From positions 150,924 to 214,923 of the forward strand of contig NW_019217908.1 in NCBI RefSeq assembly GCF_002571385.2: a stretch of 64,000 nucleotides of DNA. The letters are read 5' to 3'. Below, in pieces: positions 36,301 to 51,300 of this stretch (positions within the stretch are counted from its first letter, which is position 1; each line of letters starts with the position of its first letter). The notes beneath the pieces are model-generated. The model was given only the letters and a program-made list of their open reading frames with translations. It did not search any database and was not told the origin of the DNA. The position numbers and the translations under genes were made by a program. This stretch comes from Stylophora pistillata (taxonomy: Eukaryota).

Positions 36301-39300
36301 CTAACCTATCACAGGATGTCCTCGGGTGTTATAGCGCCTACAATTCAACTATTTACCATTAAAAAAGCTTCTTTCAACCGTAAAAGGTTCCTTCTCAGGA
36401 AGGTCCCACAACACAATAACCCCTCGCTCCGAAGCTAAGCGCACTAACCTCTGACCGACCGCATTACCTATATCATCTTACCTAGTGCGTTTAAAAGGTA
36501 CCCCGGCGATATGTGACCGCAATTTAAGGGACTCAGGATTGAGAGGTCTGGGCATGAGATCTGGCGGGATCTTTATGTTGTGCTTTTGGCCAGGACACTA
36601 AACATTACTTGTGCCTCTCTCCACCCAGGAGTATTAGTGAGTAGCGGAGCTGAACCGTCAAGAAAGCCTCACGAAATTCTGTGGATTAACCTGTAATGGA
36701 CGTGCATCTTATCATGTGGGAGCAGCAAGTCGGGATAAGTTACAGAGGGAGTGCCATTCAGCTAAACAGAAAACTTGTACTATTTGGGACCCGAAAGAAC
36801 CTGGGTACAATTTCAGCGATGCATTGCAACAACTCCACGCCCAGAAACACCGCCTCAAGCTAAGGTAAATTAAATAAGCATGTTATTTAAGAAGAAATGA
36901 CAGAAATTCTTTTTTCACTTCACCTGCAACGCGACAAATCCTACACTAGAATGCTCCAGAAGATCTGCGAAGTAGCTTGCATTCTCAAATACCGGTGGGT
37001 TATCGTTCGCATCCAGGACTTGCATTGCCACAACGGTTGTATTGTATCGAGGGTGAATTGGATCTAGATCCATTGCACGTACCTCGAAACTATAGTTCGC
37101 CTTGGTCTCTCGATCCAGTACTCCAATGGCAGTTATTACGCCATAGTCTGACAGTGCGAACTTGTCTTTGTACTGGGGAGAGCTTGGCATATCTTTCCCC
37201 GTAACATGTCCTGGAATTGAAATAGTTCATTTCATAAAACCTAACCTGAAAGACCCACAGAGTAACTAATTGATCAATGGATGCTGAAGGAAGGACGAAC
37301 CGATTGACATAAAATTGCAATAAATATATTTTATCTCGTTGCCCTGAGGTTGTCAATTGGTCGTAGGGCAATAAAGGGGATACAAAGAAAGAAAAAAGGG
37401 AGATATAAATAAATTTCATTTCCAATTTTGAGGCCACTGACGTTTAGGAGCAACATTAAAGGACAGCTTGAAAGCATCGAAATTTGAATGCTGCAAGGCA
37501 AAGTGTAAGGAACACATCTATAACATAATTTTTAATATTACCGGACTGAAAATTTCAACTTTATCTGATCGTCGCTGACCTCAAAACTGAAAGACAGACT
37601 AATTCCTCATTTAAATTCATGGTTCACATTTTGTACCGAAACCATTTTCTTATGACAAATGGGGTTTTGCCAAGTTTGGATTTTGCCAAGTTACTACTCG
37701 TGACAGAGATGAAGACGTTTTATCAACACCTACGTGATATTTTATAGGAATGCAGGACTTCCTCATCAGTAAGGCGCTTGCGCCAAATTAGAAGATCGCT
37801 GACCGATAAGTTTCCATAATACTGAGGACTCTCAACATTGTTAGGTTTGCCAATGGTCAATGAGGTGAAAATATCGCTTCCACGTGTTACTTTCTCTGGG
37901 GCTTGTGTAGATGCGATCAGTTGTCCGTCTTGAAAGTAACGTAACCCTGCCTCTACACTCCATGTAAAAGTGAAGTAAAACCAATCCTGTATTTATCGAA
38001 AAAAGGGCAATTTTAATTCAATGTGAAAGCGATCAAAAATTTCTTTTCCTACACTTCGCTCTGTGATTGGTCTAAAAAATTGCTTCACTGGTAAGGTATG
38101 GTAAATTAAGCCAACATAATGCTATAGTCAGAATGTGTTCTCAACTGAACTTTGATAAGCCTTTGATTCTTAACAAGTTTTGCCTGCTGGTGCTAAGAGT
38201 GGAAGAGGAGGTTGAAGGGCTCTTAAAAGCTATTATTCTGAAGAATCAAATTGATCATAATGAAACATTTTGAGTTCAATTCTCGGCGTAATGCCATGAT
38301 TTCAAGGATGACACTCAAACGCACAATACTCGAACTGTCCTGGAACTGTATCTACTGAAACTCTCGACCAGACAGATAATTTAAAGTCGTTTGTATAGAT
38401 TCGCTTTGATATCTCATTGGCGTTCTCAAACAATAACTTTCTAATAGTGACCTCTGATCGGATCTAGATGTTCAAGCGCTCTGTTGTCGTTTAAACAAAG
38501 TCAACTTCATATGTTCAGTGTATCTGATTTATCATCACGGGTTTATTACGAATCAACTTAACGGCCTGCTCCCAGTTGGCTTGTTAGCTCAATTGGTAGA
38601 GCGCTGCACTAGTATCGCAGAGGTCAGTGGTTCGAATCCCGTACAGGCCTGATTTTTTTCAGGTCTGATTTTCGCTATTGCATAAATAGCGCTATCTACT
38701 GCGAAGGATCGTGCATCATACGTATTTAATACCGCAGTTCAAAATATATGAACTTCATATATTCATTGTAAAGTCAAATATTGTTCCAAAATTGATTTGG
38801 ATCAACAGGAACATTTAAAACCATATCTTACCGTTGGTATGTCGTTCAATTTTAGACTCCATTCACTAGTGGAGTTTTGCAAAACCAGCCTAAAGTCACC
38901 AGCCGCGGACTCCCGATAAAAATCGAATCCAGTGGCAAACCCTGACGCTCCGCCTGATGATATAACGTACTGACCAGAGACGAACTTTACCCAGAATGCA
39001 ATGGAGAGCCCTTCTGCACACAAACTCGGGTTACTAATGCAGTTATCTGGAAAGCAATACGAAAGTTAAGACATGATCTGAATAGTTGTTTTTAGTCGTT
39101 GTTGTTGCTTTTTTTGTTTGTTTGTTTGTTTGTTTTAGTTTCTTTTCTTTTTTTTTTTCTTTTTTTGCCTCCATCATGAAGTTTAAACGGTCAACTGACA
39201 ATGAAATAAATTTTCTCAATCGTGTGGGGCTTGAAAAACTACCAAACGTCATAAGACTCGGTAACAAAGATTAGAGCGTAGGAACGGTATAAAAGCGCCA

Positions 39301-42300
39301 TTGTAAAAGTTTCCAAAGCCATTCAAAGCCAAGACTCTCGATCTGGTTGTACTTCAAAACATTCATTTCAAGATGGCATGTATTTTTAAAATTAACGTCT
39401 CCCGCTCCTACTTCTGGAAAGGGAAAATCAATTAAAGAAAAATCCACAGTGTTTGACAAAAGTCGAGAATGTCGCCTTCACCTATAGCTTACGTTTCCTG
39501 TGAAAAGCCTGAGTCAGGCACATTACAAGGAATGGCAAACATGGCTTGACAAAAACGGCATAATCTTTTTAAGGAGCATGGTGCTTGGTGGGACGATAAA
39601 ACTCGAGAAAATACTTGGATCTCTGAAGGTGTCTCATTTTTTCCGAGCATTCTATTGAAACAGGAGAACTTAAGTTTGTATTCTCTCGATTAAAACCCTT
39701 TCCATATCATTTACCACCGCAATAAGCTGCCTTTCTGAATGAAAATCCAAAATCGGCCACTAGTGTCCAAAATCCAAATCGGCCATTGGTGTCCAAAAAC
39801 CAAAATTGGCCACCAGTGACCAAAATCAAAAATCAGCCACTGGTGTCCAAAATCAGCCACTAGTACCCAAAACCCAAAACTGGCCACTAGTGTCGAAAAT
39901 AAAATATCGGCCGCTGGTGTCCAAAGTCAAAAATCGGGCACAAAGGTCCAAATACAAAAATAGACAGTCAAAGACTGTATGTGGCTACTGGTATAACACA
40001 GTTTTTAAAGCACTGAAAATAACTAGAGGTTGTATAGAGACGCTAAAGGTAGTTTTCCAGAATATACACCTCACATGCAAAACGGGGAACCCACCGCATC
40101 CCCACTTATTTATGAGTACCCTGTTTCACAAGAGAAAGATAAATCAAGAACATTTTGTCTTATTATCCAACTGTGCTTCGTAGAGTACAAATAACGCGCG
40201 AGACGAGTACAAATATCACGCGATATTTGTACTTCAGAAATATCCGCGAAATTTTCCCGCACTGAAATAACAATTTGGCGTGTTGGATAAAAAATCTCTT
40301 ATTAGACGTTTTGTTGTGTACGGCAGAACTCGTAAAAATACTCAGCGATACTACACAACAAAAGGTCTAAAAAATTTATTGATTTTCAACCAATAATTAA
40401 ATGGTAACAAATAATACTATTAACAATAATACTGATAACAATAGTAATGTAATAATAATTAAAAGGGGCTAGCTAGAAAGCCTCATAGTTCCCCTATCCA
40501 ACAATAATTATCAATGCTTCTTTTAATTTCGCCTGCTAATCGTTAATAATTTTCTCATCTTATTGCATTTCCATCTTTTTGAGACTTTTGAGACTTTAGT
40601 TTCATATCGCTGTGATTAGAGTGACTATGTGACTATTTAAGCGTGACTACACGTGACCACGCGTGAACACGCAAGCAATGCATGAATAACTCACGCTAAC
40701 AAAACGAATTGATGAAATGAGGTATTGTGATGTCATATACACAAAGACTGAAACTTTGTCACAAAGAAAAGGCAAAAAAAAAACAACTGTGAAAACTTCT
40801 CATGCCCAAACATAATCTGTATTGAAAATCCCCCGTAAAAAGCGATTCATGATTTGTGACGAAAACCTTGATTCGAAACTATATTTATTGCATGACTCAC
40901 CAGATGTGATTATTTATTCATGAGGGGAACATGTCGTATCAGGTATCAGTCACGCACTTACATCACTGACTGATTCAACTTTTCTGTTCAACCATTCACA
41001 TGCGTTTCTGAAATTTATTACAAATAATCTCGTCTTGGCAAAATCCTTCTTAATGCATATCTAACGCAAGAGGACATTCGTCTGATTAAAATAAATCCTT
41101 CCTTCCTTCGTTTGTCTCTATATTGTAATGCAGACGTCATAGGGTCCATAGGTGAACTGGTCGACATAATCATAATCGAGGGCTTCATTTAAAACCGAGA
41201 TTTTAGCTGATGAGGCCTTTTGAATGTGTCATTGGCTTTCATCTTAGTACAAAACATACTGTGAAGTGTGTGTTTGAAGAGTAAAAGTATCCTCAAAGGA
41301 TTATGTTTTCAGTTTCGTGCCATTTTCCTTTCAAATACACTACAAACCCTCACTTGACGCCAGATTAACATAGTGACATTGCTTATGGAGAGGAATGTAG
41401 CAATACAACTTAAAAAAAAGGAGCCAGAGAGGTAAAATCGAAATGATGAGGTCAAGTAGCGGCGAGGGGTGTCGGATTCATGTGAGATAACCCTCAACCA
41501 TCCGGACCTCGAATTTAGTTATAGTGGGTTAACATCTATATATGGTTCGGGTTAGACTATCCGGTGATTATGGTAAGTGTATATGAATAGATGACTTTCC
41601 TTGCGCACGCGTAGGTAAGAGTTTATAGAACGGTGTGATGAAAAAACTTTCAACTGTTGACTCGTTTGCGTCATAAGAAAGAGGAAGCATTTTAAGGCTC
41701 ACGTATGGATTCCAAAATTAACCGATCAAAATATTCCTATTTCTTCAACTAGTTCATGCAATGTTTTAATCATTTTCGATGAAAACCAAAGTTGTCTAGG
41801 TATTAAAGAAGAGCCGGACTCAGTCGGAGCAGCTAAGGGATAGACGATGGTGGTTATCCGTTCGCTCCTCTAGAATTCATATCATTTATTTTTGTTCTTA
41901 TTTTGATTGTTTGTTTGTTTGTTTGTTTGTTTGTTTGTTTTCTCTATGAAATTTTTTTTTTATTCTTATTCATACTTTAAACCTGAGAATACTTTTTAAC
42001 ATGCATTGGTGTATATTCATTTCCTGTAAGGAATAAAGTTTCATCTTTCAGCTAAGTTTCTCAACCGCAGTTAGAAATATGAAAGAAGAAACAAGAAAAA
42101 GAAACTGTAAAAGGAAGTCAAGTTATGAGAAGGGTAAAGGGGGGGAATGGTAACCCTTCTCATACGGACCTCGAACTCCAAGTTAGTCTACGTTAACTTT
42201 TATAATTTCCTCTCCAAACGATTCAATAACTGTGGTGCACAATATTGGATATTGCCGTGAACACGCGCAGTACAGACAACGGTTCCATCTAAGTGTCCTC

Positions 42301-45300
42301 TGCGTTTTGACTAATCAATTGTGACGAAACGAAACAGAAATTAAATACTCTCTGACAATAAAAAAAATTGTAAAAATAACAATAAAAAAAAAAAAAATTC
42401 ATTTATTCGGATTTACTGCACCAGAGTCACCTTACGACGGATCATATCCAGACTTCCGCTTAAGAGACTACGCGAACAACACACGATAACAAATTACACT
42501 AAATTGTAGGAGAATTGAAGAAATCTCAAAGTAGAATTAAAAATTGGCTTCATAAGCTTCCTCAGAGCTTTATATATATATCTATAGGACCTTCTTCAAA
42601 AACACGTTCCGCTCTTTCAATGATATAATGTAACTTTAAGGTCGACATGCAAAGTAGACGCGAGTACTGTATGCAAATTTTTGTTACGCTTTGATAGACC
42701 AGATGAAACCGTCTCAAAATTTTAATTTCGAGGCAACCGAATGTAAAGCTAGTTCAGTTTCGATGAAAATGAAATCCAAGGGTAGAACTGTAAAATTATT
42801 GTATTCATTACTGCTTACTATCGAAAGATCGAGCGAATAATTTTCATAGGGATCGTATTTGCATGATATCATGTTTTGGAACAAACAGCTTAAGGGCCAC
42901 CTGTAACCTGGGTAACCACCTGACGTCATAGATAACGCAATCCCTATAAATCTCACGCTTTCGTTTTCGAAAGCTGCAGAATGTACGAAATAAAAAATTG
43001 CGCTATCTTGACAGTATTCCCTCTGAAGTGTTTTCCTTTTCTTATTCCGGCATTTTCTCTTAAATTTGTTTAACCTCAAAAATGAAAAGTCAGGTTAAGC
43101 CCGAGAGCTAGAATGTCAGGGCTGCTGTAATTATTTGCTAACCAAATGATCATGAACAAACAAATATAAATTTCTCTCTGACGATGCAAATGACACTGAG
43201 GAAAGACTCTATTTTTTGGATGGCGTCGAAGCGACATTTCTCCGGTTTTCATTCTCTGGGTAGAATAGTCCGTGCTGAGACCTTCCATAAAGCTTGTTAC
43301 CATTCCTATAAGTACACTTCAAAGTTTACGCAGGTCAGAATTGGCAACAAAGTACCACGCAAGAACATATTTGAAATGCGAATTCGTTTGAATGTTTTGA
43401 CGGAGGTTCCTGGTTCGTTAATTTATCGCTCGAGAAATTACGACAGAACATTTGATTTGCTGAAAGCGTAATGTCAGAAGTTATAATTCTCGTCAAGGCT
43501 ATAGATCCCCTATTTTACCAAATTTATTGAACATGCTTGATGGTTTAAGCTAGCTTTAATTTCCAAATAGCGGCCGGTGTAATATTAAATGCGTTGAAAG
43601 ATTTTGATCTGACAACCAATGACTCCTCTCCAACCTGTAAAGAGCTTTCAACAGATAGTAAAACAGAGATGAGGTCTAGTGAGTGGACGAGGGGTGCTGA
43701 TTTCTAATGGGTAACCCTCGACCGTCCGGACCTCAGAAGTAGTGAGAATTATGAAGGTATTTATACGGTTCAATCTGTTCATCTAACCCTTGTGGTGCTC
43801 TACATGCATTAACGCAGGCGCAATTGAAATCAGAACCAATTAGGAAAAACTTAATTAACAATGCAAGGGACAGGGAGTTCAGAAGGTTGGTCATAGGAAG
43901 TTATGCATGGATGGATTTCTCTACCAAGTGAAGGTTACGCGAGAATGATATCTTCTTGTTTTTATGTTGTGCAAAAACACTTTCTAAATAAATGCAAGTG
44001 TCAAATAATAAATAAATAAATAACTTAGCAATGAACATTCCACTGGGTGGCTCTTCTTGGCCACTGTTTCCAGATCGAATTGGAATTTAGAACGTTGGTT
44101 TTATGCGGTGGGAGGAAAACCGGAGGACCCAGAGAAAAACCCTCGGAGCAAGGACGAGAACCAACAACAAACTCAACCCACATGTGACGCCAGGTCCGGG
44201 AATCGAACCCAGGCCACAGTGGTGGGAGGCGTGTGCTCTCACCACTGCGCCATCCCTGCTCCCCCAAAGGCAAGGGAATACTGGAAGGTCGAATTATGGG
44301 CTGCAACACTCAGCTACAGATTTCCTTCCACGCGATCATTGTCAAAAGATGTATACTATTGATATATTTGGAGTTTTCGCTTGCTAGCGGGGCTTCATAC
44401 CAGGTTATGTTTGTGACAATGATTGAAAGAAATGTTTGAACATAAACCTCGTCGCGTTTACTTTCTTCGAACCCAACCAAACAATAATGTCACAAAAGTA
44501 TTTCGCGAAAAGAAATGACATGGCAAATGTCCTCACAGTTAGCTAGAACTTTTTTTCACTCTTCTTTGAATGTCTTAGTTGTGTTCACATGAAGGAATAA
44601 GAATACCGCTGACAGGAAAACATACGACTGATTGAGGAACATTTATGATCCACTGCTATAGGTTGGAAATAAACATAAATACCTTTGAAGTCTCCCATTA
44701 GTAACCAAGCCTCAGATGCTTCAAGTGACACCACATTGCCGAGGTCTGGGTCAAAGACTACTTTCGCACCATTTTTTAACTCTCCTTGGACACCAGCACG
44801 CACGTCCAGGACCTTGCCAGCATCTTCACGGTCAAGTGGCCATTGATGATCACGATAAAAACCTGGAGTACAAAGGACAAAGTGGAACGTCCATTAAAAA
44901 CTCTTAGGGTCCATATGGCTGTTCGAGTAAGAGCTGTGAAACCTAAACAAAAGTTTATAAAATGGCTAGGAAAAAAAAAAGGTAAGAACACCAGCCTGAT
45001 GGACGTCGACGCGTAAAATGAGAGTGACAAAATGGTAACTGGTTTTAGTTTGTATTGTTTGAAAAGGGAATGCGAGAGTTATAAAAAAATCACATTGTGT
45101 AAAAAAGAAAAACCCTCCAACCGCTACCTGTTCGAGACGTTCAGTTTGTAAAACAGAGTGCGATAGTAAAATTAGGGGTACGATAGTAGTTGTGAATGGA
45201 AAAAGCAGGAGGCCTGTGCCGGGTCAGAAAAATGAGGGAGGTTTGGGTAATAGAGAATCTCTCCCACAACCTGTTCCAGATGTTCAGTTAGCAAAACAGA

Positions 45301-48300
45301 GTGCGATGGAAAAAATTAGAGGCACGATAGTAGTTGTGAATGGAAAAAGCGGGAGGTCTGGGCCAGGTCAGAAAAATGAGCAGAACAATGGCCTTGCACG
45401 TGCGTTGTAAATCTTTGTAAATTTCTTTGCGTCTTCTGCAAAGCAAAAGCGTGAAATGACCAAACTTTACGTTGTCTGGAGAACGTGAGCGACGCCGGCT
45501 AATTTTATTTATAATTTCATTCTAATTTAACGCTGTGTTCCATATTTAGGTTTGAGTTTTGCCAGTGAGAAACAAACTAAATGACTATAGAGTATCGCAA
45601 GATTCGCAAGTAAAAAATAAGGACAGGTCATTTTTTAAAGGACGTTGTCCACAGCGTCACCGTTGTCGTTTCTTAAACTCCCTTTTTAAATTTTAACATC
45701 GCGCTCCTTTTTATAAGCGGGAGGTTTTGGCCGGTCAACAAAATGAGGGAGGTTCGGTCGTAGTGCACTTAATTGCGTTCCTTGCACAGCCCAACCCAAA
45801 CCCTCCTTTTTTCTTTCAACCCGACCCCGTCCTCCCGCTTCTAACCCTCTGCCGTTACTGCAGTGTTTTTACTTTTAGCGTCGCCCTCTGTTTTATCAAC
45901 TGAAAGCCTGGGACAAGCTAATCTAAACCCTAATCAGATTCGACACTTACCTGAAAATTGCGCAATTTTTATCAAAATGAATTGAAGAAAAACGTATATT
46001 GCTCTTTTTCGTTAAAGAGAAAGTGCGCTAATGAATTGCTGCTAATAACTACAACCTGATTTACAGTGGTGCAATGAGACTCAACAAAATGTTGCCGACA
46101 TGTAGCGCAAAAAACTGAAGATACATGTGATATTTTCTCACAAGTTACCTCGCTAATAACTTCAGACAGCCAGAGTGACGAGAATTGACAACTTGTACAA
46201 AGTTAAAAGTACTACACTTACTTGTCTGGTTCACAAATTCGTACTTTAGTTCGCCATAAGCAGAATTCTTATCGTCTTGATCTTTATCTACAGCAGTCAC
46301 TTCACCAACAACTTTGCTGCTATCAACGTAAGAGCCCTGTAACAAGATGAAGTCTTCCATTAATTTCAAATTCATTCACGAAAAAATTGGTATGCACTAC
46401 GTCTCGATGACAAGTGCCGAATATCTCAAACTCACCTCTAACGCAATGAAGAAGAACTTGTTCTGAGTGAACATAGGAGTGTTGTCGTTAACGTTTTCAA
46501 GCTCCACGATAATTGTGGTATTCCTGGAAGTAATGATAAGTAAAACAACATTAACTGTACCCTGAAGCCATTGTGGTCATCTTGACTGAGATCACATTTC
46601 TCCATTACTTCTTAGGGAGAGTCAGAGAATTGGTAGTTCGTTGTTACTCTTTGTGATTAATGCGTAATCTTTTGAGCGTCTCAAGCTTCCCCCAATAAGA
46701 AAGTCATCCAATGGTTGTTTGCTAATTATTTTGTTTACAATTGTTGGCTTTTCTATGTCTCGGGTTGCTTGTAAAAAATGTTGAAGGACAAACATTAAGC
46801 GAGACTGACGTCATCTGGCGAATCAGATTAGCAACGAAAGGTTTTTTTTTTTTTTCTTACTCGTTGGGGAAAATTAGACATTTTACATCTTTGTAGAGAA
46901 CCAAGTTTGTTATTTAGGGCCACCTTGTGAAACACCAAAATACCGACCCCGATAGAGGAGGCATCCCTTTGTCTGTTGCTGTAAGGGTTAGTGTGTATGT
47001 GTTTGGTTTTTCATCATAATCAAACGGTTGGTAACTTGATATGACGCCACTGGAGCTGTCCACAGTAAACTGAGAAGGAACCTATCATTGGAAAAAAAAA
47101 AAGAAGTTATTGTCAAAAAAGAAAATTTTCACCCTTGTATAATTCATTCTTTGACTAAGATAAAGATTTTTGGCTGATGGATTAATTCTCTCCACAAAAC
47201 TAGAGGAGGATTTATTAAAAAGATACTCAAGAGGATGAAAATAAAAAAAAAAAAAATTGTGCAAGGCGNGTCCCACTGGACCATTTGTCAATCAACCGTC
47301 GTGTGATGTAGAACTGTTAGAGTCAAGTCAACTTGAGCTACAGCTACTCCAAAGCAGTGAACAACGGGCGCATTCCTCAAAATTGTTTTATGTCTTCATC
47401 ACAATACAAGAATTTTTGAGATTTGTATTTCCTTTCTCCAATGGAAACTGTCTTTATTTGTGGCGGTAAATTTGAGATCGAAGTCGGTGGTTCGCACGTT
47501 ACCTCGTGCCACCATGCTGGTGGAAGTAAACAATAGATATCTCATTAGCTCCTTTTGTTCGTCTACCAGCATTTGAATTTGACCCGCACACGTCAACGGT
47601 GAGTAACAAATGAGCCTAGGTCTTCCCAGGGAAGACTTCCTTATATAGCGCGCCTTCGTGTTTAAAAAACAACCCAGCCCTGTTAAGTGTTACATGACGT
47701 ACCAGATTCAAACTCCGGTGGACTGTCATTCACGTCAGACACGGTGAAGCTGACCTGTAATCAAGAGTGGAAAATGGGATGGTGGAATACTGCATTCAAA
47801 AACGAGTGCTTCGCTCACATTCTTTAGATAGAAACTTTGTCACTCTAAGCTGTAAATTCCTGTAATCGTAACTATGTCGTTTCTCCACACAAAACAAGGT
47901 CAACCAAAGCCTCACTCCTGTTCAAAGGTTTGCCAACTAATTATAAGCACTGACACAAATGTAAAATGACTCTTGCAATTTGTTTGTTGAGGATAAAAGA
48001 TTCCATATCACCCGATCAGGTTATAACAAGTTCCGAATGAGTTACGTTCGACATGTAAGTGAAAAACAAACACTCCCACACGCAGTGCTTCTTCGCGACC
48101 TTAGAGACTGTTCCAAACATCTTAGCGCACTCAAATGCCTATATAGATTATGGTAATCCCCACCTTTGTGGTGGAGTTAAATGAAATTTCTCCTCCGTCT
48201 TTAGCCATGATCTATAACACAAGAAAAAGAATACATGTTTTTTAAAGAGGTTACGAAGCAAACAGTTTCGTAAAGTTGAGTCCACGATCAAACGGCGAAA

Positions 48301-51300
48301 ATAGTTTGAAATCAAGAAAATGAACCAATACCGTAAGTAAGAAAGAACTCTCGTTCCTCGGTGGATCTCTGTCAATGGAACTCTTCACGTAAATTACACC
48401 ACTAAAGACATCAATGAAGAATCTCTCAAGGGTATTACCACTGACAATAGAGTACCTCAGAGCCATGTTTACATTATCATCGCGGTCTTGGGCGGAGAGT
48501 TTTAAGATGGCGGTACCAGTAGTGATGTTTTCATATATTTCAACGTGATACAAAGGACTGGCAAACAGTGGTCTGTGGTCATTTGTATTCTAAAGAAAAG
48601 AAATGCATTTTCCATGCAGTCATAAAGCTGACCATTATATAAACTGCGAGACATCGATGCGCGCTAAAATCTTGCACCTCTTGCGCTCGAACGACATCAA
48701 GACCAGTAAAAACTGTCGTTTTTCGGTTTTACGGAACGCTGAAAATGCAGTACCGGGTATTGTCCTTTGCTGAGTAACAAGGACTTCAAATTTTGTCCTT
48801 CACTTGAGCTCATTTTCGATATTCTTTCAAGGCGTCTTTTAGGACGATTTTACAACGCTTTAAGCCTTTCCTCACTTAAACTAGCTTTCACATTCCCCAC
48901 GCTATTCTCGCTATTCTTTGGTACAAAGAGAATTGTTGTGACTATCGGGAGCTTCTCACATTGATGATTGCCGGTTTCCTTTATTCTCATGGCCTGCACA
49001 TTTGATTTAAGGTTGATACTGTAAGTAGAAATTAAAAGGTAGACACCCTTGGGGGACAATGGGTCAAAACCGTTTGGTGACAATCGAAGAACACAAACGT
49101 CTTATCTTGATCTCTCTAATTTAACAACAGTATGGCAAAACAAATTATCGAGATGTAATCTTTATGGCTATGATTGCGTTGAACCCGACTATAGATAACC
49201 TAGCAAGAAGGAAGTAAGGGTAACGAAAGCCTTACCTCGACTACAACTTCAACCACCGTGGAATCGTCAAACACAACGCCATAACTGTTGTTACCATGGA
49301 GATCAGACACACGAATCAACAAGATATAGGAATCATGCTGTTCCCGGTCTAAGGGACCTGTAGTGGAAAGAGCACCGCTGACTGGATCGATGACGAAGCT
49401 GTTGTCAGAATCTCCAGATAGGATTGAATACAAAAACGCCGAGTTGATGCCAACATCTCGGTCTGTTGCCTGTATATAAAAGTCTCATTGGTTAGTTCAA
49501 TAACAAAACACGCACATGAAAATGTCAGAACTGACTGAAGATATGGGTCATTATGCTAAGAAAACCCTCACTATTGTTTGCTTTTCGAGGAAGGAAATTT
49601 TGCGAGCTGACAAAGATCTGTTAGAACCAGACTTAAAAAGTATATTTAATTTCTGTTATGTGTAGCATGTATAATTTCCTATCCTCGACGTAAGCAGAAA
49701 CGATGTACATAACAGCAAATTTTTTCGGCGCCAGGAGAAACTTTCGATCGTCTAGAGAATCTGGCGTTCCGCCCCGTTTACCACAGTTTGCTGCAATTCA
49801 CCTTGCTTCGATAATTATGTGAAAGCGATTTTACCATAGAAACAAGTCAAACAAGGCATGGGGATACCTCCTCAGTGCTTGCGTCCAGACGAGCGTGTAC
49901 GATTTTAAAAACCTTACAAAAATGACTGTTACCAAATGAACCGGCTAACTTATGACAAGGTAAGAATTTTACAATTGTTATTGCTTCAGTAGTTCAGAAA
50001 AATTAAGAAAGAAGATGATTAAGTTCTGATAAGTTCGAGTAAATTATTAGGCGGGCGCCGCCAGAATGCATGGTTAGCGAGATATTGTAGTTGGCCATCC
50101 TTTGGAATACACATATAGACACATGTATTTAAAAAAATCCAGTATATTGGTAGAGCTCAATGGGTACAGCGCTGCACTAGTATCGCAGAGGTCAGTGGTT
50201 CGAATCTACTGCGAGGATTGTGCATCATACGTATCTATAACCGCAGTTCAAAATATATGAACTTCATATATTCATCGTATCTGATTTAAAACCAGGTCAC
50301 CCAACATACCGTCAAATTCAAGATGACATGCGCTGGAAGTTGCTCTTTCACCGCTACAACGTAATGCCGCTTACTGAATACCGGACTGTGATCATTGACG
50401 TCAGAGACGTTTATCACAACATTAACTTCAGCCTGGAGATTGGAAAGACCTTTATCTTTGGCTAGAACCCGGATTTTATGTTGGTCAGCGGACTCGCGGT
50501 CTAATGCAGAGGTTGTCTTTATCTCGCCAGAAGAGTCGTCTATGGTAAATCTGGAAATTATTGAAGACAATGAAATGTAACTTTCGATCGAGCAATTTTT
50601 TTTTCAGATGAACCCAAAGTCGCCGTGAACCACTTAATAAACTAGTTACGACTAGTTACAACTGCTAAGCGAATAATGCTATTCAATGGGTTGGATGGAT
50701 TTATGTACCAAAACATGAATTCTTATTCTTGAATTAAGTTTCCTCTTCACGTTATTTCCAAATGCTTGACGGCAAAAACTTATCACTCACTGAAGTGCCT
50801 TCATTCTTTAAATAACTCACTTTAAATAATCTTCTACCGGCTTAAGACTGTAAATGACCTCTGCATTTATTCCCTCGTCGGTGTCTACAGCCTGTAAAAG
50901 TGACAAATTCAAGTATCAAAAGACAAGTTTAATATGGCCTTGGAACTGAATTCAGTGGAATATTCGAACAAGGATAACATACAAAGTACATTTTAAAATA
51001 GCGGACGTTATTTATCTGTTTTCTTAGTTTGTAGAAGTTAGAAAATCCTGTCTTCTACCTTTTGTGCAACGGCACAGTTTCAAAAACAAATTAAAGCAAT
51101 ACTACGTGTCTTAAAAAAAAAAATTGACTACGCACGCGGCGAGAGGAAACTGTAGATGACTTGAACGTTATGCGTTTAATAACGGACCAAACTGAAACCA
51201 TTATTCAACTTAGTTTGGGAATATGAACTTACCGTGACAATTCCAACAGTCAAACCAGCTTTTCCCTCGTCCACTGAAAAGTAATACCCCTCTGGTTCAG

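Follow-up and report, generated by a model that had tools for sequence, protein, structure and literature searches.

A 64,000-nucleotide stretch of the genome of the coral Stylophora pistillata (assembly GCF_002571385.2, contig NW_019217908.1, positions 150,924 to 214,923; hereafter the window) carries three related RNA hairpins, a, b and c, on its minus strand. Each hairpin appears to have its own promoter of the U6 type, with a proximal sequence element (PSE) and a TATA box, and probably constitutes an independent RNA polymerase III (Pol III) gene for a 64-77-nt RNA of the Y/stem-bulge RNA (sbRNA) family; we put the probability of this reading at about 0.85. The promoters themselves are almost certainly built from the coral's own PSE and TATA. 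This promoter type was already known, and the new part is likely to be the existence of cnidarian Y RNAs.

Promoter elements of the hairpin genes

All three hairpins open with GAGGTCC, the first G lying at 41510, 42172 and 43734. These 5' ends are assumed from the stems, and all negative positions count from that first G (Table 1). An earlier note on this DNA had reported a core ACCAYAR and a TATA element at matching spacing upstream of each hairpin. Both are there: the cores lie at -64, -64 and -62, TATA lies at -32, -32 and -31, and the 10-mers quoted in the note are exact. ACCAYAR occurs 32 times in the window (both strands), and the combination ACCAYAR-N22-28-TATA is found at four sites, three of them at the hairpins. 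A fourth ACCACAA...TATA site at 48172 (minus strand) has a shorter spacing, lies directly behind a cadherin exon, matches no RNA family and is probably due to chance.

With a matrix prepared from 25 other genes of the genome, hairpins excluded, a site of equal or better score together with a correctly placed TATA was found at 2.8e-4 (a), 4.5e-4 (b) and 5e-5 (c) of 485,834 background positions. These frequencies are conservative because the background contains true promoters. The arrangement of motif and TATA at the hairpins is beyond chance.

Table 1. Hairpin genes, their promoter elements and the host intron (window positions)
Feature	Position	Strand	Remarks
Hairpin RNA gene a, Y/sbRNA-like	41434..41510	-	terminal stem 41510-41448; first T4 41437-41434; predicted ~77 nt
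TATA box, gene a	41536..41544	-	-34 to -26; TATA at -32
PSE, gene a	41564..41577	-	core ACCATAA 41574-41568, -64; 7.3 bits
Third upstream element, gene a	41602..41611	-	CGCGTGCGCA, -101, 1 mismatch to CGCATGCGCA
Hairpin RNA gene b, most divergent copy	42109..42172	-	pyrimidine-rich loop; T4 42112-42109; predicted ~64 nt
TATA box, gene b	42198..42204	-	TATAAAA, -32
PSE, gene b	42226..42239	-	core ACCACAG 42236-42230, -64; 6.0 bits
Hairpin RNA gene c, nearest family consensus	43660..43734	-	T4 43663-43660; predicted ~75 nt
TATA box, gene c	43759..43765	-	TATAAAT, -31
PSE, gene c	43786..43799	-	core ACCACAA 43796-43790, -62; 14.0 bits
Third upstream element, gene c	43813..43822	-	TGCGCCTGCG, -88, 1 mismatch to CGCATGCGCA
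Host intron, ~9 kb, ends approximate	37227..46147	-	many-exon cadherin-repeat gene; splits one cadherin domain; contains a, b, c

The rest of the flanking sequence had been described as largely unalignable. This does not hold for a and c, which share a CGCATGCGCA-like element at -101 and -88; in b such an element is found only with 3 mismatches. A CGCATGCGCA-like word (at most 1 mismatch, -130 to -70) occurs in 3 of the 4 hairpin genes of the genome, 9 of 25 genes for small nuclear RNAs (snRNAs) and similar RNAs, and 15 of 26 hairpins from metagenome contigs, as against 0/41 decoys and 2/1000 window bins; the word was picked by eye from the same data, so the counts for these gene sets are not independent of it. 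The element, which we take to resemble an NRF1 site, may be a near-upstream activator site.

PSE of the snRNA-type genes

The comparison genes, all from the same genome, were U6, U2, U1, U6atac, RNase MRP, RNase P, selenocysteine tRNA (tRNA-Sec), U5 and U4, with U12 and U3 added later. An unseeded Gibbs sampler was run on positions -100 to -1 of 29 non-hairpin genes (9 of the Pol III type and 20 of the RNA polymerase II, Pol II, type). Eleven further copies, mostly degenerate, had been left out after inspection, and four sub-threshold U2 and two weak tRNA-Sec loci also stood outside the set. The motif recovered blind was (C/A)CCA(C/T)A(T/A)G, with CCCACATGGAAG-type sites. The earlier note had named an unrelated PSE at the snRNA genes as one of two findings that would tell against its proposal; the snRNA motif is the hairpin element itself. 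The alignment with snRNA promoters that it had suggested likewise gives, at the hairpins, the same element in the Pol III-type position, with TATA and T-run terminators. Its core ACCAYAR, present at all three hairpins, is too narrow as a description of the genome consensus.

Among the Pol III-type genes, seven of nine have the core at -63 to -67 together with a TATA-like box (3/3 U6, U6atac, RNase P and 2/2 tRNA-Sec). In the Pol II-type snRNA genes the core lies at -55 to -59 in 18/20, and one variant U1 gene has a displaced core site. The scoring matrix was built from these 7 Pol III and 18 Pol II sites. All three held-out genes over the cut-off carry a PSE, with U12 at 11.6 bits and two U3 genes at 9.5 and 11.8 bits, at -57, -57 and -58; a sub-threshold U12 copy scores 2.6 bits. 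A search of the genome for 7SK gave a single weak match of 35.4 bits (cut-off 35) with neither PSE nor TATA, and it was dropped as a comparison gene.

The U6atac (L025) and U12 (L180) genes are present and intact, whereas minor snRNAs are said to be missing in Cnidaria in the passages of a review available to us (PMC5493778). The two RNase MRP genes (L026 and L027, on contig C59 of the genome, G000) end in T runs, and both have a CTCTTTGATTGGT stretch roughly 50 nt upstream.

Polymerase class

The position of the PSE divides the Pol III from the Pol II genes without overlap, and all four hairpin copies of the genome fall on the Pol III side: with starts assumed as above, the hairpin PSEs lie at -62 to -64, compared with -63 to -67 for the seven Pol III genes; the Pol II genes have theirs at -55 to -59. 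The distance from PSE to TATA is 31-32 nt at the hairpins and 29-35 nt in the Pol III set. The first run of four T (T4) starts 10, 1 and 7 nt past the stems of a, b and c. In human genes a PSE together with a TATA box is established as directing Pol III, according to the parts of PMC5493778 that were available. The genome also encodes a subunit of SNAPc, the complex that binds the PSE (a SNAPC3 family match on contig C43, E 3.9e-16).

The PSE is common to both polymerase classes, and it might recruit Pol II here as in U1-U5, leaving the TATA box decorative, as may hold for some U4 and variant U1 genes. TATA-like boxes are indeed present in 3/6 U4 and 2/2 scored variant U1 genes, mostly at a shorter spacing (23-31 nt), and TATA alone is therefore no proof of Pol III in this genome. 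The clean division by PSE position and the T4 runs directly behind the stems speak against such a role for Pol II, which we regard as very unlikely. The three U4 genes in question, out of six examined (L047, L048 and L049), have the box behind a PSE in the Pol II position. In the variant U1 cluster L022, L023 and L024 (G000:C574) the 5' ends are altered, and a weak PSE is combined with a strong TATAAAA at about -31; these genes are possibly regulated differently or read by Pol III.

For the hairpins, the most probable course of events follows established type-3 promoter biology. SNAPc would bind the PSE and TBP/Brf2 the TATA box, with the CGCATGCGCA-like element acting as a near-upstream activator site. 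Pol III would start at the first G, with C or T at -1, and stop at the first T4, independently of host-gene splicing.

Fourth copy, homologues and host intron

A pattern describing only the RNA body gave four matches in the genome compared with none in the reversed control. The fourth copy lies on contig C101; it shows a T run, and its promoter has the PSE at -64 (10.9 bits) and TATA at -32. Its neighbour is an LBR-like gene, whose first coding exon follows after about 0.9 kb, and the lists of open reading frames (ORFs) contain no cadherin exon in 20 kb. A looser pattern gave 5 matches in the same genome and 6 in the reversed control, its sole new match having neither promoter nor model hit.

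In metagenome contigs the same body pattern found 119 loci with 121 matches, which were sorted by pairing of the RNA body alone into 64 hairpins and 57 decoys; clustering by upstream identity and removal of short flanks left 28 hairpins and 41 decoys. The independence of these hairpins is limited by paralogues from few samples. PSE and TATA are both present in 21/28 hairpins and 0/41 decoys, and a T4 follows within 22 nt in 24/28 and 2/41, respectively. A matrix score of at least 5 bits is reached by 20/28 hairpins, all at -63 to -65, and by none of the 41 decoys. Two of the 28 (L054 and L064) do not look animal. Over the remaining 26, conservation by position attains 60% nowhere except in the PSE, the TATA and a C at -1 (the C being present in 81%). 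Promoter and hairpin thus occur together across homologues although the spacers differ. We infer that the contigs are host DNA of corals or their relatives. A divergent Y-like hairpin of eukaryotic appearance (GGUCCGAAG, compensated terminal pairs) was also seen at L099:393-459 (minus strand) and with identical sequence in L123; it has CCCATAA near -66, a TATA, a T run and a score of 28.7 bits against the nematode sbRNA model RF01656.

Minus-strand exons coding for cadherin domains occupy two stretches, one at about 8-37.2 kb and one at 46.1-60 kb. One cadherin domain is divided between the exon at ~46.2-46.4 kb and the exon ending at ~37.2 kb. Hairpins a, b and c therefore lie in sense orientation inside a single intron of ~9 kb. 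The RNAs might accordingly be excised from this intron after splicing, the upstream motifs being incidental, and the shared strand and shared intron are what would be expected of processed RNAs. This is highly improbable: the chance of motif and TATA together is below 5e-4 per copy, the fourth copy has the same promoter elsewhere, the promoter is kept in homologues with differing spacers, and no snoRNA (small nucleolar RNA) family match was found at the hairpins in the comparison with Rfam. In the available passages of PMC2527325, intronic non-coding RNAs of C. elegans with such promoter motifs are reported to be expressed independently of their hosts. The claim of the earlier note that the hairpins are independent Pol III units rather than intron-processed RNAs is thus supported by the PSE, its Pol III position, the TATA boxes, the T runs and the fourth copy, and on these sequence features independent Pol III transcription is likely.

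Two other origins were considered and dismissed. A short interspersed element (SINE) or other repeat does not fit just four copies in 398 Mb with an external promoter at each. A plus-strand C/D snoRNA was suggested by a box-C-like word found at a alone and not conserved in the homologues.

Structure and affinities of the RNAs

The RNA consensus reads GAGGUC C GGACGGUU GAGGG UUAUC, a variable loop, then CCCUC UUCCACUCA CUU GACCUC and a U tail. When 52 sequences were aligned without regard to structure, 97.6% of cells were paired, compared with 47-66% in slid controls, and 3/15 pairs changed on both sides, which was matched by 2/500 shuffles. Terminal helix 1 (GGUC/GACC) is paired in 99.5% of cells over the 52 sequences and has two pairs with compensatory changes, with the caveats that the search pattern already contained part of this helix and that conservation is too high for strong covariation. 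A structure-fitted alignment with non-animal rows gives 8 covarying pairs and is not relied on. UUAYC stands at the 5' edge of the loop in 51/52 (UUA was in the search pattern, the final two letters were not). The C in the terminal-stem context is invariant; the context is GGUCCGG in 50/52 rather than GGUCCGA, and the predicted folds place the C in a 1x1 loop. The consensus of RF01656 likewise reads GGUCCGG.

In Rfam, hairpin b matches Y_RNA at 22.6 bits, the best score in the window. For 11 of 13 other loci the best Rfam match is RF01656 (10 loci, 24-34 bits) or Y_RNA. The coral RNAs are likely relatives of Y RNAs and sbRNAs, built like them and probably descended from them. The upper stem has GAG in 47/52 sequences and UG in none, which fails the motif (A/G)UG-CA(C/U), and for this reason the coral RNAs are classed neither as sbRNAs nor as vertebrate-type Y RNAs. 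According to the parts of PMC4450293 and PMC4726728 consulted, vertebrate Y RNAs and sbRNAs need the UG-CA motif of the upper stem for the initiation of replication, and CeY, BfY and DrY lack the motif as well (PMC4726728).

The genome encodes an orthologue of Ro60, seen as a TROVE match on contig C61 and aligning with human RO60 over 266 residues at E 2e-79. It is intact across the RNA-binding half, and positions K170, R174, R184 and H187 of human RO60, which have a role in RNA binding, are identical in the alignment. The terminal GGUCCG/CUUGACC helix may bind coral Ro60 and the U tail may bind La; we lean slightly towards binding of Ro60.

A doubtful but serious alternative is that these are Pol III hairpin RNAs of Y/sbRNA ancestry that are not bound by Ro60, a behaviour reported for most nematode sbRNAs. 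The closest model is that of the sbRNAs, most C. elegans sbRNAs are absent from ROP-1 precipitates in the accessible text of PMC4726728, and both the GGUCCGG context and the predicted 1x1 loop in place of a single bulge fit this alternative. Binding of Ro60 is favoured by the two patterns having given no other Y-like candidate in the genome, though Ro60 is intact over its RNA-binding half, and by near-identical hairpins that adjoin a Ro60-like ORF in L064. This metagenome contig was found only by the coral pattern, and it lends independent support to the kinship of the coral RNAs with Y RNAs and sbRNAs. Its three tandem hairpins give model hits of 29.5-32.7 bits and match RF01656 at 27-34 bits, and they immediately precede an ORF with E 2.9e-11 to human RO60 (33% pairwise identity over 76 residues); the 93-residue Ro60-like piece had no match in Pfam. 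In this arrangement (L064:299-536 and L064:1-280, both minus strand) the hairpins lie between a dCMP-deaminase-like and the Ro60-like ORF, and their sequence is animal-type, not YrlA-type. The contig is rich in AT and dense in genes, and would belong to a phage, a giant virus or a bacterium.

Weight of the evidence

Besides the TATA-like boxes of Pol II-type genes and the shared orientation within one intron, a number of observations weigh against each hairpin being an active gene of the Y/sbRNA family with a PSE common to the genome. The PSEs of a (7.3 bits) and b (6.0) are weak relative to the leave-one-out median of 10.9 (range 3.2-14.4), and the best site of a in the blind motif scan is at -18, not -64. 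Among the snRNA-type genes, 2/2 RNase MRP genes lack the motif (no PSE above 5.3 bits within 300 nt), the site of the best U2 gene, at -58, is weak (3.6 bits), and the U1 copies L016 and L017 (152.7 bits) are without it and were dropped from training, an exclusion that was partly post hoc. Hairpins a and c have no Rfam match to Y RNA or sbRNA at E<=10, and all Rfam scores are below the gathering cut-off of 38, where the window reaches 22.6, the C101 copy 27.6 and the homologues 33.6 at best. Lastly, transcript signal is nearly absent: two raw-read runs (X21 and X24) gave 0 reads and the third (X22) gave 14, of which ~2 touch hairpin a.

The expression data are from long-RNA libraries, with 2-6% of each of the three raw-read runs sampled. 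Such libraries are expected to lose RNAs of 64-77 nt, and we infer that they are no test of hairpin expression. Twelve of the 14 X22 reads fall at 42547-42996, outside the hairpins. This region between b and c has six identical X22 read pairs and an X1 contig, and is probably a repeat or one amplified molecule. X1 contigs cover 15/30 bins, hairpin a included, and also much DNA outside genes. At 41446 and 41512 contigs branch in agreement with the ends of a; these branches may come from a paralogue or chimera and were not counted as evidence. An X1 variant at 41444 yields a T4 run 7 nt closer to the stem of a than in the window sequence.

The weak PSEs raise the possibility that the elements are true type-3 elements, with a and/or b being decaying duplicates of little or no output and only c and the fourth copy fully active. 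In line with this, the PSE of c is strong (14.0 bits compared with the training-site median of 10.9), the first T4 of a is 10 nt behind its stem, b lacks the third element and has no b-like sequence among 48 distinct metagenome bodies, and a few homologues have no promoter altogether (L060 for the PSE, L118, L162). However, b has the best predicted fold of all (z -6.7, with a perfect upper stem of 12 bp) and retains TATA, spacing and T4, and a retains all three elements and receives the sole read and contig signals that fall on a hairpin. Decay of a or b is unlikely on balance. That every hairpin is an independent gene with its own promoter is still preferred.

Comparison with known systems

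In the following comparisons the literature is represented by the passages accessible to us. The promoters resemble the type 3 Pol III promoter of U6, 7SK and Y RNA genes (PMC5493778) in having a PSE common to Pol II and Pol III snRNA genes, a TATA near -30 in the Pol III class, a T-run terminator, and a SNAPC3 encoded in the genome. The coral core (C/A)CCAYA(T/A)G is unlike the human PSE consensus TCACCNTNA(G/C). Where the type 3 system has a distal octamer or Staf element (neither was searched for), the coral has a CGCATGCGCA-like element at -85 to -120. Also unlike the type 3 system are the TATA-like boxes of some U4 and variant U1 genes and the RNase MRP genes without the motif.

Upstream sequence elements (USEs) of green algae, red algae and protists include ACCCAYAW, ACCCATAA, TCCCAWCATC and GNCCCAYW (PMC8287931, Table 1), and the coral core is close to those given for Micromonas, Auxenochlorella, Galdieria and Plasmodiophora. 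Their CCCAYA core is nearly identical and has the same role as an upstream element of snRNA genes, and the coral core is nearer to them than to the human consensus. The coral differs in its animal context and in its Pol III spacing, which is shorter in land plants and longer in the coral. Because of this closeness the core is likely an ancestral SNAPc site and not a cnidarian invention. The "cnidarian PSE" of the earlier note is therefore a PSE in use in this coral and its relatives that, judged by the tabulated USEs, is not specific to Cnidaria.

Type-3 promoters are established for Y RNAs and sbRNAs (PMC4726728, PMC2527325), and PSE-like and TATA-like promoters of nematode sbRNA loci have been tested in reporters (PMC2527325). 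The coral RNAs share with nematode sbRNAs and their UM3 promoter (RF01656; PMC2527325, PMC4450293) the arrangement GGUCCGG...GGGUUAUC...ACUUGACC, several genes per genome, individual PSE-like and TATA-like promoters and T-run ends. They differ in the upper stem (GAG-CUC for (A/G)UG-CA(C/U)), in a much shorter loop and in scores of 24-34 bits, below the cut-off of 38. With vertebrate Y RNAs (RF00019; PMC4726728) they have in common clustered genes with distinct Pol III promoters, a U tail, Ro60 in the genome, paired 5' and 3' ends with GGUCCG and CUUGAC, and UUAYC at the start of the loop. Unlike those, they have a length of 64-77 nt instead of 84-112, a terminal helix of 6 bp, GGUCCGG for GGUCCGA, no GUG-CAC, and scores of 20-23 bits, below the cut-off.

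Review passages mention Y-like RNAs only from vertebrates, nematodes, insects, amphioxus and bacteria. For Trichoplax, PMC2655684 describes a recognisable PSE and reports that Y RNAs were sought and not found. No described cnidarian Y RNA or PSE was found in the open-access literature covered, which included passages of PMC2770079, PMC4201824, PMC9841428 and PMC12135203; the supplement of a 2008 metazoan snRNA survey may hold a Nematostella PSE. Tentatively, these would be the first Y/stem-bulge RNAs of a non-bilaterian animal: minimal, multi-copy, coral-wide, Ro60-binding and without GUG-CAC, with a CCCAYA SNAPc site and a compact promoter of three parts (CGCATGCGCA element, PSE and TATA) inside 110 bp. 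If so, the Y RNA of animals, along with its type-3 promoter, would predate the split of cnidarians and bilaterians, the replication role would be a later addition, and corals would have retained the ancestral eukaryotic CCCAYA SNAPc site. The natural GAG-CUC upper stem turns an old question into a testable one: which function of animal Y RNAs came first, binding of Ro60 or initiation of DNA replication.

That the hairpins are real genes is supported most strongly by their promoters. The sequence and geometry of the coral promoter are now defined on the basis of its own genome, with a rule of position that divides Pol III from Pol II genes, and the PSE/TATA definition offers a search handle for coral RNAs missed by homology (7SK, vault and others). 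The earlier note had proposed compact promoters for guide RNAs (sgRNAs) or short hairpin RNAs (shRNAs); the hairpin promoters, which fit within ~110 bp and start at G, are candidates for such cassettes. Use for sgRNAs is plausible, and the U6 promoters of the genome are the more obvious choice.

Other features of the window

Three tRNA-like copies lie at 38578-38650 and 50154-50210 (plus strand) and 44188-44259 (minus strand); one is full-length, one is partial and one is a tRNA-headed SINE-like element. Repeats lie in the hairpin-bearing intron as well (39749-39977 and 45121-45915): a 27-bp tandem array, and a direct repeat of 143 bp that has an inverted partner.

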